DNA of 64,000 nucleotides from an uncultured Actinomycetes bacterium (GTDB lineage: Bacteria; Actinomycetota; UBA4738; HRBIN12). The stretch spans positions 71,222 through 135,221 of the forward strand of contig CAWKKN010000007.1 in assembly GCA_963850315.1 (NCBI GenBank). The letters run 5' to 3'. The translations under genes and the position numbers were made by a program. Within the stretch, counting starts at the first letter, position 1, and each line of letters begins with the position of its first letter. The notes beneath the pieces are model-generated. The model saw nothing but the letters and a program-made list of their open reading frames with translations. It was not told the origin of the DNA and made no database searches. Shown one piece after another: positions 873 to 39,920 of the stretch.

Positions 873-2084
873 ATGGGCACCGGGCCCCGCAGGGACACGT
901 ACCTGGGATGCGCGATCCTTCTCGTGCTCGTGGTGCTCGCGAGCAGCTGCAACACGCAGCAGACACCAACCGCGTCGGGCACGAGTACCGGCCCTTCAAC
1001 GACGGGCTCCTCGACGCAGCCGGTCTCGTCCACGCCGTTGCCGAGGCCGGCGAGCTGGCGGCTCTTGCCGGCCGCCCCGATCGCGGGCAACTACCCACAG
1101 CTCGGGGTGTGGGACGGCAACGAACTGCTGATCCCTGCCTCGCCAGACTCTCTGCGCGCCAAGCGCTGCCCCGAGCTGGCCGCCTACACCCCCGCTGGGG
1201 GCACGTGGCGGATGCTTCCACCCGGCCCGGGGTCAGGGGAGTGTTTCGATGGCACCGAGAAGGCGGTGTGGACCGGCAAGGAGATGCTCGTATTGGGGAT
1301 GACCAACATCGCGTTCAGCCCCGCGAGCGGCCGGTGGCGCCGTGTCCCGAGGACGCCGGGAGGAGTGGATGGACCCGGGGTGGCGGTGTGGACCGGCCGT
1401 CAGGTGATCGGCTGGGGCGGCGTGGATTGCTGCGGCATCCCCATGGACGGAGGAGCGGCGTATACGCCGGCTACCAACTCGTGGAGGTCGCTCCCTCCCT
1501 CGCCGCTCTCCGCGCGAGACGCGCCGGGGGCCTGGACCGGCACGGAGCTGATCGTCGCCGGCGGGGACGACGGGGAAGGTGGGCACCACTTCGCCGACGC
1601 TGCCGCCTACAACCCCACCACGCACACCTGGCGCTCGTTGCCTCCCATGCCGGTGCGCAGGGACCAGGCCGTGGCCGTGTGGGACGGACGGGAGCTCCTC
1701 GTGATCGGCGGCGGCGGCGTCAGGGGACCGCTGGCACGCGGGGTGGCCTACGACCCGGCGACCAACCGATGGCGGTGGCTCCCCCCCATGGCGTACCCGC
1801 GGACGGGTTTCGTGGCTGAGTGGACGGGCCGTCAGGTCCTGGTGTGGGGCGGCGAGACGTTCACGGGGGCGACCTGGACGACGGGCACGTGGAAGGCGCC
1901 GCCGCACGGCGAGGCCTACGATCCCGCGACCAACACGTGGTCGGCGCTCCCGATGGCACCTCTGCGCGGCCGGATCGTTCCGCTCGGAGCGTGGACGGGC
2001 ACGAAGATGCTCGTGTGGGGCGGCTTGTCGTTGAACGTCGGCACGTTCTCCGATGGTGCCGCGTTCACACCAGGCACTCCCTAG
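873..2084 (+). CDS. Kelch-repeat (beta-propeller) secreted lipoprotein
   Basis: ATG 873 is preceded by AAGGAAGAGGAGAG. N-terminal signal peptide with a lipobox (LVVLASSC). Repeated W-x-G / AY-x-P-x-T-x-x-WR-x-LPP Kelch-like blades recur about every 50 aa. Confidence 0.7.
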   Translation: MGTGPRRDTYLGCAILLVLVVLASSCNTQQTPTASGTSTGPSTTGSSTQPVSSTPLPRPASWRLLPAAPIAGNYPQLGVWDGNELLIPASPDSLRAKRCPELAAYTPAGGTWRMLPPGPGSGECFDGTEKAVWTGKEMLVLGMTNIAFSPASGRWRRVPRTPGGVDGPGVAVWTGRQVIGWGGVDCCGIPMDGGAAYTPATNSWRSLPPSPLSARDAPGAWTGTELIVAGGDDGEGGHHFADAAAYNPTTHTWRSLPPMPVRRDQAVAVWDGRELLVIGGGGVRGPLARGVAYDPATNRWRWLPPMAYPRTGFVAEWTGRQVLVWGGETFTGATWTTGTWKAPPHGEAYDPATNTWSALPMAPLRGRIVPLGAWTGTKMLVWGGLSLNVGTFSDGAAFTPGTP

Positions 2085-2183
2085 CCGCATCAGCCGAGCG
2101 GACGCCCGGGTTGAGCGAGATCGCCCGGCGTATCCTGCGTTGGTGTCGGGATCGAACCTATCGTCCACTCGTTGACGCGAAGC

Positions 2184-2209
2184 TGTCGATTTCGTCGCTC
2201 CCGTTCGTC
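2184..2209 (+). promoter_or_regulatory. Putative ECF sigma-dependent promoter (TGTCGA-N16-CGTC) driving the YciI-like / ECF sigma operon
   Basis: TGTCGA at 2184-2189, a 16-nt spacer, then CGTC at 2206-2209, about 35 nt upstream of ATG 2243. This resembles the ECF41/ECF56-type autoregulatory motif TGTCACA-N16-CGTC. Confidence 0.35.
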
Positions 2210-2242
2210 TAATCGGCGACCATCTTCGAGGAGGAGGAAGCG

Positions 2243-2599
2243 ATGAAGTACATGCTGTTGATCCATCAAGGCACCACCCCGACGCCACCATCGCAGGAGT
2301 GGGACAGACTTCCGGAAGACGAGAAGGGGGCGGTCTACGCGGCGTACCAGGCGATCAATGAGACCCCCGGCGTCAGCCCCGGACTCCAGCTGCAGCCCGC
2401 CGAGACGGCAACCACCGTGCGGGTGCAAGACGGCAAGACGTTGACCACCGACGGTCCGTTCGTCGAGATCAAGGAGGCTATCGGCGGCTACCTCCTGTAC
2501 GAGGCCGACGATCTCGACGCTGCGATCGAGCTGGCCTCGCGGATCCCGGCGGCCCGCATGGGTGGCGCGATCGAGGTTCGTCCGATCGTGGAGTGGTAG
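2243..2599 (+). CDS. YciI-like (YCII-related / DGPF domain) protein
   Basis: 118 aa with the DGPF motif ([18 protein letters not shown]). Strong RBS GGAGGAGGAAG. Overlaps the start of the downstream sigma gene, the typical YciI-ECF sigma gene pair. Confidence 0.8.
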
Positions 2600-3780
2600 C
2601 GATCCTCGAGCAGACGTTCCGCGATACCTGGGGCTATGTCCTCGCGGCCCTGATCGGCTTCCTCGGCGACTTCGACCTCGCCGAGGAGGCCGCGCAGGAG
2701 GCTTTCGCGATCGCCGCGGAGCGCTGGCCGCGCGACGGAGCCCCCACCAACCCCAGCACCTGGCTGGTGACGACGGCGCGCAACCGAGCCATCGACCGCA
2801 TCCGCCGCGAGCGCACGCTGGTCGCGAAGACCCGCCTGCTCCAGGTGCCTGAGGCAGTGGAGAACAGCGTGGAGGCGACGACGTTTCCGGACGAGCGACT
2901 CGAGCTCATCTTCCTCTGTTGTCATCCTGCGCTCGCCACCGATGCGCAGGTCGCGCTCACCCTGCGGACGCTCGGTGGCCTGAGCACCGGCCAGATCGCC
3001 CGCGCCTTCTTGGTGCCCGAGCCGACGATGGCGCAGCGGCTGGTGCGGGCGAAGCGCAAGATCAAGGCGGCCGGGATCCCGTTCCGGGTGCCGCCCGACC
3101 ACCTGCTGCCCGATCGGCTCGCCTCGGTGCTCGCGGTCGTCTACCTGATCTTCAACGAGGGTTACGGTGGCCGCGGCGAGCTGGCGGCCGAGGCGCTCCG
3201 ACTAGGTCGGGCGCTCGCCGAGCTGATGCCCGACGAGCCCGAGGCTCACGGTCTGCTGGCGATGATGCTGTTGCTCGACGCCCGCCGTGAGGCGCGGTTC
3301 CGGGATGGCGACGTGGTATTGCTCGCCGAGCAGGACCGATCGCTCTTGGACATGGCGCAGATCGCCGACGGGCGAGCGATCCTTCACCGCGCCCTGGCCC
3401 TGCACGGGCGCGGGCCCTACGTCCTGCAGGCGGCGATCGCCTCCCTACATGCCGACGAGCCGCGTGACTGGCCCCAGATCGCCGACCTCTACGCCGAACT
3501 TGCCCGTCTCACCGACTCGCCGGTCGTCGAGCTGAGCCGGGCCGTCGCGGTCGCCGAGGAGCACGGTCCTCAGGCGGGACTCGACATCGTCGATGGCCTC
3601 GCCCTCGAGGACTACCACTACCTGCATTCCACACGGGGCGAGCTGCTGCGCCGCCTCGGTCGAACGGAGGAGGCCCGCGACGCGTTCCGCCGTGCGCTGG
3701 GGCTGGTCCACGACGACGCCGAGAGGCGCTTGCTCGAGCGGCGGCTAGCGGAGCTCGGCGGGGCCACCGGTCCCGCCTAG
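2593..3780 (+). CDS. ECF-family RNA polymerase sigma factor with long C-terminal TPR-like extension (COG4941 / ECF56-like)
   Basis: The N-terminus carries sigma-70 regions 2 and 4 ([18 protein letters not shown]...[28 protein letters not shown]). About 200 extra C-terminal residues follow. GTG start overlaps the YciI-like stop. Confidence 0.85.
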
Positions 3781-6838: not shown

Positions 6839-7038
6839 GCGTCCTCCTCGTCCATCTCGAAGATCTCCTGAACGGCCGAACGGAACAGCCGCGCCATCCG
6901 GAACGCCAGCGGGAGCGACGGCAGATAGCGTCCCGCCTCGATCGAGTTGATCGTCTGTCTCGACACCCCAAGCGCCTCGCCAAGATCGGACTGCGTCATG
7001 CCTGCTCGCGTCCGCATCGCCCGTACCCGGTTCCGCAC
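6835..7038 (-). CDS. XRE-family helix-turn-helix transcriptional regulator
   Basis: 67 aa. Classic HTH_XRE motif (GMTQSDLGEALGVSRQTINSIEAGRYLPSLPLAFRMARLF). Confidence 0.8.
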   Translation of the reverse strand: MRNRVRAMRTRAGMTQSDLGEALGVSRQTINSIEAGRYLPSLPLAFRMARLFRSAVQEIFEMDEEDA

Positions 7039-7069
7039 GATGGAAAGGTACCTTTACATCGCCCGGATG

Positions 7070-7573
7070 TCAAGCAGACTTTCCATTCCCTGCCTCCCGC
7101 ACCATCAACCAGGACTCGACACGGGCGCCCCCTCGGACGTCGGTGTCCAGCGCCCGAACGACCTTGCGTAGGCTGGCTCTCTCATACGCACGTTGAGCGC
7201 GCACGTTGTCGACGGCGGTGAGCAGCGCGACGCGCGTCGCGTCGTGCTGCTCGAACAGATATCGGCACAGCAGGTCGACCGCGCGGGAGCCGAAGCCACG
7301 CCCGAGCGCGTCGGGATCTCCGATGAAGATGTCGAGACCCCATGCACCGTCGTCGGGCGAGATCGACATCTCCCGAGCCGCCTCCGCGTAGGCCGACCAC
7401 GGGTAGAACTGCAGGTAACCGATCGGCCGAGCGTCGACCTCGATGAAAGCCGCGACGCTCGCGCTGCCGGGATCCGTGTCCGGTCCGTACTCGGTTCTGA
7501 CACGTTCCTCGGAAGGATCGGGTTCGTCGTCGGCGTCCCAGACGGCACGCACGTGCGGCTCGAGCCGCCACAC
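7070..7573 (-). CDS. Alternative gene model: stand-alone GNAT N-acetyltransferase (AAC(6')-like fold) from GTG 7573
   Basis: Main-frame GTG at 7573 gives [18 protein letters not shown]..., matching the AAC(6')-Ib N-terminal motif WLNRSHIVEWW. 167 aa is a typical GNAT size. This model requires the upstream phosphoesterase to terminate via a frameshift (see findings). Confidence 0.4.
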
Positions 7574-9229
7574 CGAGCATCTGCCGGTAGTCGACGTCGA
7601 GATCGCGCATCCGCCGGATCGACAGTTCACCATCGCGCGCCAGCTGGTCGGGATCGGCCACGCGACGATGCTGCCACATCGAGCGGAACCGGCCGGGAAG
7701 CCCGCCTGGCGCTCAGCCGGGGGGAAGGGCGTGAGCAGCACGGGCGGGCGCGGCTTCTGGTGGAAGTTGAAGTCGATCGAGAGGTTCCCCAAGCGTTTCG
7801 CGCGCTCGCGCACGTCGGGCCTGGGGTCCCAACGCCCGTCGGTCTTCGGGTCGAGCCGCCGACCGCTCAGGAAGTCGTCCTCGATGAACTTGAGATAGGC
7901 GTCCGTCGACAGCACCTGAGGGTCGATGAACCCATGCCGGGCGTAAGGGCTGATGACGAGCCCGGGGACCCGGAAGCCGTAGCCTTCCCCGTCGACCTTC
8001 GGAGGTACGACGTGATCGTAGAAACCTCCCCAGTCGTCCCAGCTCAGGAAGATCGCTGAGCTCCTCCAGTCGGGTCCCGACATGACGGTGTTGATGAGAT
8101 GGGTGACGTAGGCCTGGCCCGCAGTCACCGACGCCGGCGGGTGTTCGCTCTCACGCCAGTTCGGCACGACCCATGACACGGACGGGAGCGTGCCGGCGGC
8201 GGCCGCCCGCAGGAACGCATCGGTGCCGTGCACGTCGCCGACCTGTCGATCCCTGTGCACGTCCTGGAAGGACGGGAGCGGGTTCCAGATGTCGGGGGTG
8301 CTGACGCTCTGAGGCCGCTTGCGACAGACCTCCAGCTGATCAGCGCAATCGGGCTGGGATCCCGGCGCAACGTAGTACCCCCAGCTCACGTGGTGCTTCG
8401 CCAGCAGGTACGTGAGATCGGTCCACTCGAACGGCGCGGGGTTGGCCTTGCGTCCGTGCGGCTTCGGGTTGCGCAGGTCGGTGTGGCAGCTCGCGACGTC
8501 GTTGCGTTTGGGACAGCGCGCCGACCACCCCGACACCATGTAGAGGTGTGCGGGCTCGCTCCACGACGACACGGCCTCGAACATGTGGTCCTGCAGCACG
8601 AAGTCCTTCGCGTAGGTCCAGTAGTTGGGGATCTCCGCGGCCGTGTGATAGCCCATGGCGTCCGTCCGATGCCCCTCGGCGAGCACGCCGGCGCACTGCG
8701 GGTTGGTGAGATGGCGGAGACAACGCCGTCCATGGGCACCCGCCCGGGCAGTGGCGACGAATCCGTTCATCCGTCCGCGATCCAGATCTCGCAGGAACGC
8801 CCCGTGGGTGTGCGGACCGCCGGCCTCCACGACCCCCGTCTGATGGAACGGCGCGACACACGTGTGGTTGTACGGGTCCGGCACGCTGACCGTGGGCACT
8901 CCGTCCTTCATCGGGATGCCGTCCGCTCCCGGAAACGTCCCGAAGTAGGAATCGAAGGAGCGGTTCTCCTGCATGATCACGATGATGTGCTTGATCTTGT
9001 GGATCCCGCGGTTGCTCACGTCCCGCAGCGGAGCGGGGAGCGGGTCGGGCACCGTGGGGTGACACCTTGGCGTGACCGCCGTCGCGGAACGGAACGCTAC
9101 GAGGCCGGCCTCGGCCAGGACGGCGGCCACGAGACACAGCACGAGCGCGCGAAGCGCCCAGCCGGACCGTGTCCCCACATGCCATGAGTCCACGACCCTT
9201 CGTCCGTCACCGTGCCCGCGGGGGTTCAT
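7070..9229 (-). CDS. Phosphoesterase-family protein (phospholipase C / acid phosphatase AcpA-like, signal peptide) read through in-frame into a C-terminal GNAT domain; apparent fusion or lost stop
   Basis: N-terminal signal peptide, then the phosphoesterase signature [22 protein letters not shown] and an AcpA-like C-terminal region ([13 protein letters not shown]). A low-complexity linker follows, then a GNAT domain ([12 protein letters not shown]...[10 protein letters not shown]...[11 protein letters not shown]) to the stop at 7070. There is no in-frame stop between the two domains. Confidence 0.55.
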
Positions 9230-9285
9230 CCTTGATGCTTCGACAGATCCGCCCTCTCAGCCAAGTGCCGTTCCACGAAGCCGTG

Positions 9286-9912
9286 ATGCACGATGTCCGG
9301 ATGCGGGACGAGATGACGCCGGACATCCCACGCCGTTCTCCTAGGTGGGCGGTCGGCTCCATCGCCACCGTGGTGGTCGTTTCCCTGCTCGCCTTGGCGA
9401 TCGTGGCCCTTCACCGGAAGGGGGATTCGGGTCCGTCCACGAACCCCGCAACCGGCCGCGCGACAGCCGTGCAGCTCCGCCCGGTCGGATCGATCGTGAC
9501 GCATGCGTCCCCCCACTACGCGCAGACGCAGGTGACGTGTGGTCCCCGGGACCCCTGCACGGCCGAGGAGTTGCTGCGGGCGCCGCGGATCGTGCTCGCG
9601 GACGCCGCGGGCTTGAAGTACCGGCTGGGTCCCGTCATCGTGACCGGCGACGACGTCGCGTCTGCCCGCGCATCCTCCGCCGGCGGAAGCTGGGGGGTGT
9701 CGATCCGGCTCACGCCGTCCGCCTCGAGGACGTTCGCCTTCGTGACGGCGCGGATGGCCGAGTACCTGCCGCCCAGGCAGATCGCCGAGATCGTCGACGG
9801 CCAGATCGTGTCCGCGCCGAGCGTGGAAGCTCCGGTCGCCGGGGGCGGCCTGCAGATCGTCGGCGACATCACCGAGGCACAGGCGAGGGCGCTCGCCGCC
9901 CGGCTCGGCTAG
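9286..9912 (+). CDS. Membrane-anchored protein with SecD periplasmic P1-like domain
   Basis: One TM helix (WAVGSIATVVVVSLLALAIVAL). The C-terminal region resembles the SecD P1 head (VTGDDVASA...AEYLPPRQIAEIVDGQIVSAPSVEAPVAGGGLQIVGDITEAQARALAARL). Start choice among 9283/9286/9301 is uncertain. Confidence 0.5.
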   Translation: MHDVRMRDEMTPDIPRRSPRWAVGSIATVVVVSLLALAIVALHRKGDSGPSTNPATGRATAVQLRPVGSIVTHASPHYAQTQVTCGPRDPCTAEELLRAPRIVLADAAGLKYRLGPVIVTGDDVASARASSAGGSWGVSIRLTPSASRTFAFVTARMAEYLPPRQIAEIVDGQIVSAPSVEAPVAGGGLQIVGDITEAQARALAARLG

Positions 9913-21983: not shown

Positions 21984-22157
21984 CTCCCTCGTGGTCCTTC
22001 CGACGATTGGCCGACGATCTCTGGCCGCCGATCCTTGGCCCAGCGATGTCGGGAGCAGTCGAACCCACCCCTATGGATAGGGTCATCGGCGCGCGTGGAA
22101 GGAAGCCTGAGCGAGAAGCTGAGCGGCGGCCGGGCGAGCCCGAGCCCCACGAACGAA

Positions 22158-25262: not shown

Positions 25263-25421
25263 GTGCGCGAAGTAGCCATGATCCTCGACACGCGCGAACG
25301 GCTGGCGTTCTGTGAGGCTCACGTGCCGGGCTCGGTGAACGTCGAGCTCGACGGGTCGCTCCCCAGCCGGCCTGAGCGCTCAGTTGTCCGGTCGCGAGGG
25401 CCGCCGCGACCAACGGCCTGA
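25263..25421 (+). pseudogene. Rhodanese-domain N-terminal fragment (probable remnant)
   Basis: EALVREVAMILDTRERLAFCEAHVPGSVNVEL resembles the start of a rhodanese domain (ILDVRE...GHIPGAVNIPL) but stops after about 50 aa with no catalytic Cys loop. It lies immediately upstream of a sulfite-oxidase-family gene. Confidence 0.3.
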
Positions 25422-25424
25422 CGT

Positions 25425-26630
25425 ATGGAAACGTGGAGAACGCGTCACATGTCCCGCCGTCGGTTGACCGTCGCGGCCTCTTCGTGTGTCACGAGGAGAG
25501 GGTGTACCACGCAGCAAGAGGCGAGTGAAGAGCGGCGGCATGCGAGAGCTCGCCGTCCCCGAACGGCCACGACGGTGCCCGGGATCGTGAAGTCGGTGCA
25601 TCCGAGCCGCTTCATCCAGCACGACACGGCGGCGGAGATGCGGTGGGACCGGGTCGACCCCGGCTACCTCACGCCGGTCGATCGGTTCTTCGTGCGCAAT
25701 CAGAGTGTGACCCCGCGTGTCGGCGTCGGCGATTGGCGGCTCCGGATCGAGGGTCCCGGCGTGACACGACCGCTCAGCCTGAGCTACGACGAGATCCTCT
25801 CCCTTCCCAGCGTTACCGTCGTCCGCGCCCTCGAGTGCGCGGGGAACGGGCGAGCGTTCTTCGCCGTCGAGCACGGGCATGCGCTGGAGGGCCACGGATG
25901 GATGCTGGGTGGGGTCGGGGTCGCGGAGTGGACCGGAGTGCCGCTCACCGAGCTGTTGCAGCGAGCGGGCGCCCTCGAGTCCGCGGTGGACGTCATGCCG
26001 ATCGGGGCGGACGAACTCCAAGTTCGCAGGCCCATGCCGATCGCGAAGGCGCTGGAGGAGGACACGCTGCTGGCGGTCGCGATGAACGGCGAGCCGCTCC
26101 AGCCCGATCACGGCTTTCCCGCCCGCGTCCTCGTTCCCGGGTGGGCCGGCATCTCCAGCATCAAATGGGTCGAGGAGATCTGCGTATCGCTGGCGCCGCT
26201 CTCCTCGCCGTGGAGCACCGAGTCCTACGTACTTCGCGGCCCCGCCTACGAGACGCCCGAACACCCTCACGGGAAGGTGATCCATGCGCTGAGCGTGAAG
26301 AGTGCCCTGGAGCTGCCCTGGCCGGCCGATCTGGTGGCGGGGCGTCGCGACCTGCATGGCCGCGCATGGTCGGCACTAGGCCGCGTCGCGCTCGTCGATG
26401 TCAGCCTCGACGGCGGTCGGACCTGGGCCGGCGCGGAGCTCGTGGCACCGAACGAACCTCGGGCGTGGGTTCGGTGGCTCTTCCGCTGGGATGCGGTTCC
26501 GGGCGCGTTCGGCATCCGCGTGCGGGCGACCGATGAGTTCGGCAACACGCAGCCGGATCACGTCTCGTGGAACAACCTGGGCTATGAGTACGACGGCGTG
26601 GTGGCGCACCCCGTGGTGGTCCATCCCTAG
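25425..26630 (+). CDS. Sulfite oxidase-family molybdopterin oxidoreductase
   Basis: Moco-binding core (FFVRNQ...ECAGNGR...GVPLTELL...) and a C-terminal dimerisation domain. Possible Tat-like SRRRLTV near the N-terminus. Start is uncertain (25425 or 25449). Confidence 0.8.
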   Translation: METWRTRHMSRRRLTVAASSCVTRRGCTTQQEASEERRHARARRPRTATTVPGIVKSVHPSRFIQHDTAAEMRWDRVDPGYLTPVDRFFVRNQSVTPRVGVGDWRLRIEGPGVTRPLSLSYDEILSLPSVTVVRALECAGNGRAFFAVEHGHALEGHGWMLGGVGVAEWTGVPLTELLQRAGALESAVDVMPIGADELQVRRPMPIAKALEEDTLLAVAMNGEPLQPDHGFPARVLVPGWAGISSIKWVEEICVSLAPLSSPWSTESYVLRGPAYETPEHPHGKVIHALSVKSALELPWPADLVAGRRDLHGRAWSALGRVALVDVSLDGGRTWAGAELVAPNEPRAWVRWLFRWDAVPGAFGIRVRATDEFGNTQPDHVSWNNLGYEYDGVVAHPVVVHP

Positions 26631-27005
26631 GGCGGAGCCGGGTAGGCGGCCGGGGCTTCTCCCCGGCCCAGACGAAGGGGAGGGATCGCCGGGAGATGAG
26701 TCCTGGCCTTCCTACGGTATGGGCCGGCCGCGGCATCCATGAAGTCGGAGGACCGCTCCTGCGTGTGATCACCGTGGACATGGCGAGCGGTTCGCGCTCA
26801 CGGCCGCCGGGGCTCGTCGACAGCGACATCGACGCCCCGCACTGGATCGGCAACCATCCTGACCGAGAACCGCTACACGGGTTGACGTTCCTCACGTGCG
26901 CGGCCGACGTAGGCTCAACACGGGCGGTCTCGGGTGATACCGAGCGTGCCTAAACGAAACCACCGCGCTGCGCATCCATGGTTCGTGTGGAGCGAGGGAG
27001 CACGG

Positions 27006-39332: not shown

Positions 39333-39920
39333 TCAGCGCATGCCGATGTGGTTCATCGCCTCCTGACGCGTGCGGGCGTCGGAGCGGAACAGCCCCCGAA
39401 CTGCCGAGGTCACGGTGACGGAGCCGGGCTTCTTGATCCCGCGCATCGTCATGCAGAGGTGCTCGGCCTCGATCACCACGAAGACGCCGCGGGGCTCGAG
39501 GGCGCGTTCGATCGTGTCGGCGATCTCGGTCGTGAGGCGTTCCTGCACCTGCGGCTTCTTCGCCAGGATGTCGACGACGCGTGCGATCTTCGACAGGCCC
39601 GTGATCTGGCCGGACTTGTTCGGTACATAGGCCACGTGAGCCCTCCCGCTGAACGGGATGAGGTGGTGTTCGCAGTTCGAGTACAAGGGGATGTCGCGCA
39701 CCATGATCATCTCGTCGAAGTCAGCGCCCTCGACGACGGTCACGACCCCGGTGGGATCCACGCCGACGCCCTCGTAGACCTCGCGGTACATGCGCGCGAC
39801 GCGGTGGGGTGTCTCCTTCAAGCCGCCACGTTCGGGATCCTCGCCGATCCCCTCCAGGATCATGCGCACACCCTGCGCGATCTTGTCTTCGTCGAACCCT
39901 TGAGGCGTCACGGGCCGCAT
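39333..39920 (-). CDS. folE: GTP cyclohydrolase I
   Basis: [18 protein letters not shown] and HLCMTMRG motifs. 195 aa. Confidence 0.9.

Follow-up and report, generated by a model that had tools for sequence, protein, structure and literature searches.

A phosphoesterase–acetyltransferase fusion in an uncultured Actinomycetes assembly probably results from two single-base errors in the consensus

Main finding

In the window (the whole stretch of 64,000 nucleotides that was analysed), one uninterrupted open reading frame joins a phosphoesterase to a GNAT acetyltransferase. Judged from sequence comparisons, this fused ORF is probably the artefact of two single-base consensus errors, and a genuine gene fusion is very improbable. 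The organism itself would carry two ordinary genes, an exported PF04185 phosphoesterase of 493-504 aa and, 33 nt downstream, a 202-aa cytoplasmic, distantly AAC(6')-like acetyltransferase. The direct comparison is with a near-identical sister, the 1.04-Mb ENA metagenome contig ERZ25039488 contig_20612, in which the two genes are separate and intact.

The fused reading frame and its parts

The ORF occupies positions 7070-9229 on the minus strand, starts with ATG at 9229, and is stop-free throughout its 719 aa; a G6 run lies at 7719-7724, just as the original prediction described, and is the sole G/C run of at least six within 7000-9300. The phosphoesterase start in the public gene calls (P0001 and P0122) is GTG 9193. 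Pfam places PF04185 (Phosphoesterase) at residues 79-453 (2.2e-68), and the GNAT matches, PF13523 (1e-16), PF00583, and PF13302, at residues 553-690 in the phosphoesterase frame. A GNAT in that frame had been predicted and is present, but the domain is not the full one that was claimed: the match begins late, at profile position 11 (PF13523) or 21 (PF13302). Three-frame translation found the 35-residue start of a GNAT (ATG 7679 to 7575) in another frame, resembling the first strand and helix that the fused GNAT is missing. Joined to the following segment (VWRLEPHV...), these residues give a 202-aa composite whose Pfam matches reach back to profile positions 2-3 with higher scores, and this composite predicted a second frameshift near 7574. 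At the other end of the junction, one C added to the C6 run leads to ...TPFPPG and then to TGA 7713-7715. The parts are as follows.

7718-9193, minus strand: phosphoesterase gene proper (PF04185, Pfam 231.5 bits); homologues end ...FPxG and stop
7720-7718, minus strand: last homologous phosphoesterase codon, CCG (Pro)
7719-7724, minus strand: first indel (-1), a C6 run on the coding strand that is C7 in the sister (pairwise alignment)
7574-7717, minus strand: mis-framed "linker" of 48 codons, ending ...TTGRCS (three-frame translation)
7575-7679, minus strand: actual start of the GNAT gene (codons 1-35), identical to sister GNAT residues 1-35
7571-7574, minus strand: second indel (+1), one G too many at 7574, with an adjacent A>G at 7571 (alignments)
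7070-7573, minus strand: GNAT codons 36-202 and stop TGA 7070-7072, 100% aa identity to the sister (PF13523, PF00583, PF13302)

The linker has no family match in Pfam. It arises when the lost stop, the spacer of 33 nt, and the first 35 GNAT codons are read off frame, so that it overlaps a segment that is conserved as protein in another frame, which argues against a genuine fusion.

Two indels separate the window from its sister

The window and contig_20612 are 98.6-99.9% identical. The best database match to the 719-aa ORF is the 493-aa P0001, which covers 69% of the query at 100% identity and ends ...TPFPPG. On the contig this PF04185 phosphoesterase is followed 33 nt on by a separate 202-aa GNAT, whose ATG corresponds to window position 7679 and which is exactly the composite predicted from the window frames. 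The phosphoesterase shows 0 mismatches to the sister gene over 1482 nt, and the whole of 7070-9229 differs from the sister only at two indels (C7>C6 and the extra G at 7574) and two substitutions, the A>G at 7571 and a synonymous C>T at about 7448. In tblastn, GNAT residues 1-35 align at 7679-7575 (frame -3) and residues 36-202 at 7573-7073 (frame -1), both with 100% identity.

Both indels are directly visible in the alignments. The first reads tcacgccctt[C/-]ccccccggct (sister vs window), and the change from C7 to C6 at 7719-7724 takes the natural stop, TGA 7713-7715, out of the phosphoesterase frame. At the second, the sister has CTC GTA TGG and the window CTC G GTG TGG, and the extra G at 7574 brings GNAT residues 36-202 into the phosphoesterase frame. 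The fusion is the product of these two single-base indels, opposite in sign and 150 nt apart. The end ...TPFPPG* expected of an added C is the one found in the sister, which has C7. The C6 run, proposed as the junction, is indeed one breakpoint, but a single indel does not explain the fusion since the extra G at 7574 is needed as well; the prediction had listed a homopolymer sequencing error beside a genuine fusion and a frameshifted junction, and it had missed this second indel. The suggested GNAT start at GTG 7573, giving 167 aa, proved wrong: at this position the sister reads GTA (Val36), its protein starts at ATG 7679 and has 202 aa, and the N-terminus upstream is conserved and aligns to solved AAC(6') structures.

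We also considered errors in the sister contig rather than in the window. These were rejected, because the outgroups side with the sister and errors do not make intact, full-length conserved ORFs.

The two-gene arrangement in relatives

The nearest five phosphoesterases (69-100% identity) end in FPxG in four cases and in FPAKT in one. The relative at 83% identity (a JGI contig with gene calls) has a separate, intact 196-aa GNAT 22 nt downstream. In the relative at 82% (L002, ERZ25039488 contig_85574) the phosphoesterase stop is kept and the GNAT is separate, with an N-terminus that matches the off-frame segment of the window. The comparison of orthologous loci that had been proposed therefore gave separate genes in the sister and in both of these relatives, and this uniform two-gene state at 99.9%, 83%, and 82% identity argues against a functional fusion.

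More distant homologues agree. None of the best 120 of 8000 scored phosphoesterase homologues has a GNAT domain; they carry PF04185 only, and each covers at most 69% of the 719-aa query. Conversely, none of 37 GNAT homologue loci has a phosphoesterase within 4 kb. The GNAT match begins within the first 20 residues at about 30 of the 37 loci, and codons 1-35 are conserved in L002 and 30-odd homologue loci. In scans of genome and metagenome contigs the nearest GNAT homologue is about 63-64% identical, and a second assembly with the fused allele, or one from the same species, was not found there. The fused architecture is thus not repeated in independent relatives. The C-tract is not conserved, either: L002 reads TTTCCGACGGGCTGA at the site of the C6/C7 run. 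The two-gene arrangement, observed directly in the sister and these relatives, is the ancestral one, and the window state is derived.

Two of the GNAT homologues have frameshifts of their own. The orthologue at L002:5517-6106 carries a 1-nt deletion (GACGACGG-GCATGG) at codon 111 and is called only as a 76-aa fragment, and a 61%-identical homologue at L017:4001-4553 (MFD02159.bin.1.80) shifts frame at about residue 141, not at a homopolymer. The GNAT is not syntenically conserved outside the lineage of the window.

The locus had been described as part of an accessory-looking island, which the wider sequence does not support: GC content is ordinary (0.66-0.69), the neighbourhood is syntenic in L002, and the locus sits beside the housekeeping genes radA, carD, ispD, clpC, lysS, and fol genes.

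Other broken genes and differences across the window

We extended the comparison with contig_20612 to window positions 4.8-41.9 kb (37 kb, about 45 genes). Frame-breaking 1-nt indels were observed directly in many genes.

22995: radA-like gene, one indel, 100% aa identity on both sides
20131: ispD, one indel
19351 and 19040: SpoU methyltransferase, two indels
18520: P450, one indel
17167: HisKA kinase, one indel
16068, 16026/16024, and 15909: GAF protein, three or four indels
about 40255: DnaJ-domain gene, one indel

The amino acid identity flanking the breaks is 87-100% where matched, and all these genes are intact in the sister contig. Conserved genes of the window thus carry isolated frame-breaking indels that are absent from a near-identical genome, as a consensus artefact would leave them, and the ORFs of the window (radA, ispD, and others) are unreliable and frameshift-prone. 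The indels are clumped (the GAF gene has four within 160 nt, the SpoU gene two), so that two indels within 150 nt at the fusion locus are in character. Beyond the 15.9-20.1 kb cluster, however, only some four coding indels are spread over about 33 kb, and with errors distributed uniformly we put the chance of such a pair at only about 5%.

Among the single-base indels in 4821-25111 (compared with L041, either strand), 7 of 24 fall at TC[G] sites, the extra G at 7574 included, where 1.7 were expected (P about 0.001, for a motif picked post hoc). This excess hints at a context- or methylation-dependent base-calling error.

Several larger differences were seen in the same comparison. A 1.36-kb segment with a sulfite-oxidase-like (Oxidored_molyb) gene at 25366-26728 is inverted relative to contig_20612, and about 490 nt, most of a rhodanese-like gene (L042 6572-7060), are missing at the junction near 25371; all breakpoints share the palindrome GCCGGC, and the rearrangement may be a true structural variant or an assembly error. 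At 22029-22044, in the intergenic region downstream of a carD-like gene, the window has a 16-nt insertion (GCTGGGCCAAGGATCG) that looks like an inexact tandem copy of the bases after it. Similarity to contig_20612 falls sharply at 1729-3570, with about 40-57 mismatches per kb and many indels, in a stretch that spans a sigma-70 region-4 gene and a YCII gene and looks like the boundary of a divergent or recombined segment. At 39336-39635 (L043:17780-18082), the sister GTP cyclohydrolase I is called at only 100 aa, with about 500 nt left empty after it; truncation or a frameshift may affect this gene in both assemblies.

Origin of the two indels

That the two indels are errors rather than real mutations is the most likely reading. 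A C would have been dropped from the C7 homopolymer three codons ahead of the phosphoesterase stop, and a spurious G would have entered codon 36 of the downstream GNAT gene. As the errors are opposite in sign and the off-frame stretch between them is stop-free by chance in DNA of about 67% G+C, a gene caller would read the phosphoesterase, 48 junk codons, and GNAT codons 36-202 as one protein of 707/719 aa. Sporadic loss and gain of bases in the assembly is the simpler reading, since a simultaneous fresh pseudogenisation of radA, ispD, SpoU, and the others is implausible.

Several of the retrieved GNAT-homologue loci (nearest about 63% identical) come from Microflora Danica MAGs, which are Nanopore-only assemblies made with Flye and one Medaka round, and whose authors looked for Nanopore-associated errors (PMC12313526). 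By analogy, we infer that the window assembly is probably Nanopore-only and of the same origin.

Some features speak against error. The extra G at 7574 is not of the long-homopolymer type and has a substitution three bases off; together the two may represent a true complex mutation. Around the fusion locus, 11 kb of sequence are otherwise clean and of low divergence, with three other indels that are all intergenic, as for real differences filtered by selection. All four differences within 7070-9229 fall close together, in 280 nt at the GNAT 5' region. These observations favour the reading in which both indels are real, the GNAT having been inactivated by the +1 at codon 36 and the stop removed by slippage in the C7 run. 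This would be gene decay: translation would run on past the lost stop into a junk linker and a crippled GNAT tail, which is no functional fusion. The frameshifts at other positions in the L002 and L017 homologues could be real recurrent decay of a dispensable gene, and the lack of synteny outside the lineage would fit such dispensability. L002 and L017 are long-read-style assemblies as well, however, and their frameshifts may be the same artefact. Decay is also an implausible account of radA, ispD, SpoU, and the other broken genes with 87-100% aa identity around the breaks, and 215 extra residues on an exported enzyme would probably be deleterious. We regard decay as rather unlikely, yet it is the alternative that survives best. 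A variant of it, with two real indels and a strain that makes the exported phosphoesterase joined through the 48-residue linker to the truncated GNAT, as a fusion at its very birth, is very improbable.

Slightly less probable still is a role of the C-tract in phase variation or programmed frameshifting, by which the phosphoesterase C-terminus would be switched or the two genes coupled. A C6/C7 difference between near-identical genomes, in a homopolymer exactly at the gene end, would suit such a role. However, the 82% relative lacks the tract (TTTCCGACGGGC), and the C-termini of homologues are variable (FPPG, FPTG, FPSG, and FPAKT). A run of 6-7 nt is short for efficient slippage, C6 in the sister background leads into a long junk frame and not into the GNAT, and the fusion needs an unrelated second indel too. 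The tract is therefore not kept in relatives, nor are both of its states sensible, as a phase switch would require.

The least credible reading, which we consider extremely improbable, is a genuine functional secreted phosphoesterase-GNAT fusion with a new domain architecture, for although the 719-aa frame is uninterrupted, both domains score above the Pfam cut-offs, and the product has been deposited, its linker is the conserved GNAT N-terminus read out of frame, and the homologue and relative comparisons above are all against it. The fusion makes no functional sense, its GNAT part being without strand 1 and helix 1. By inspection of the sequence, an acetyl-CoA-dependent domain would also hang on a protein whose N-terminus is a hydrophobic segment of the export type, and acetyl-CoA is absent outside the cell.

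Implications of the artefact

Under the preferred reading of two consensus errors, the biology itself is of little weight and the main value of the case is caution. The chimeric 707-aa product (P0122), encoded on a contig of 406,982 nt, is already in public NCBI/ENA-derived protein collections, where it could be misread as a "secreted phospholipase-aminoglycoside acetyltransferase" architecture or as a resistance-gene match. Two compensating indel errors can yield a two-domain ORF that looks clean and passes quality checks made on one ORF at a time, and the ORFs of the window assembly need read-level verification. A true fusion would add one small case of gene decay or of genes fused through a double frameshift.

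Comparison with known systems

The phosphoesterase domain is complete, as predicted: it scores 231.5 bits against a PF04185 cut-off of 23, covers profile positions 1-353 of 356, and contains the 16-residue signature. By inspection, its N-terminus is a hydrophobic export-type segment. The narrower families do not claim it, with 163.4 bits against a cut-off of 580.25 for the phosphocholine-specific phospholipase C (TIGR03396) and 133.3 against 362.75 for the Burkholderia-type acid phosphatase (TIGR03397). Its closest solved relatives are the Francisella acid phosphatase AcpA (2d1g, similar in sequence at 3.9e-26) and several solved phospholipases C; the PF04185 family takes in AcpA and bacterial phospholipases C of the PlcH/PlcN type. 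Compared with the PlcH type, which has 700 aa and C-terminal domains, the window phosphoesterase has about 490 aa and is without these domains.

The restored 202-aa GNAT scores 66.9 bits with PF13523 (Acetyltransf_8) over profile positions 2-140 of 145, a complete domain that only the restored two-gene reading provides and the fused ORF does not. AAC(6')-Im (6bff), AAC(6')-Ie (4qc6), and AAC(6')-Ib (1v0c/2pr8) are its best PDB relatives, aligned over essentially the whole 202 aa with E values of 1e-11 to 1e-17; residue 8 of the 6bff chain aligns to GNAT residue 20, inside the off-frame segment (strand 1 and helix 1). The predicted resemblance to aminoglycoside 6'-N-acetyltransferases is thus real but distant and does not extend to membership of a curated AAC(6') family. 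In the NCBIfam AMR models (NF012165, TIGR04431, NF033074, and others, each with its curated equivalog or exception cut-off), the cut-offs are 250-450 bits and the window GNAT reaches 28-64 bits; its best score is to AAC(6')-Ian (63.6 vs 400 bits), followed by 55.9 vs 280 and 50.1 vs 260, so that no cut-off is approached. By these scores, the GNAT is a distant AAC(6') homologue found in soil Actinomycetes and Dormibacterota MAGs and no recognised resistance gene.

As for the indels, the window is like uncorrected Nanopore assemblies in its clumped single-base indels, which are mostly deletions, with one homopolymeric, and which break or merge conserved ORFs. The two opposite errors of the window would mimic a two-domain fusion rather than a truncated gene.
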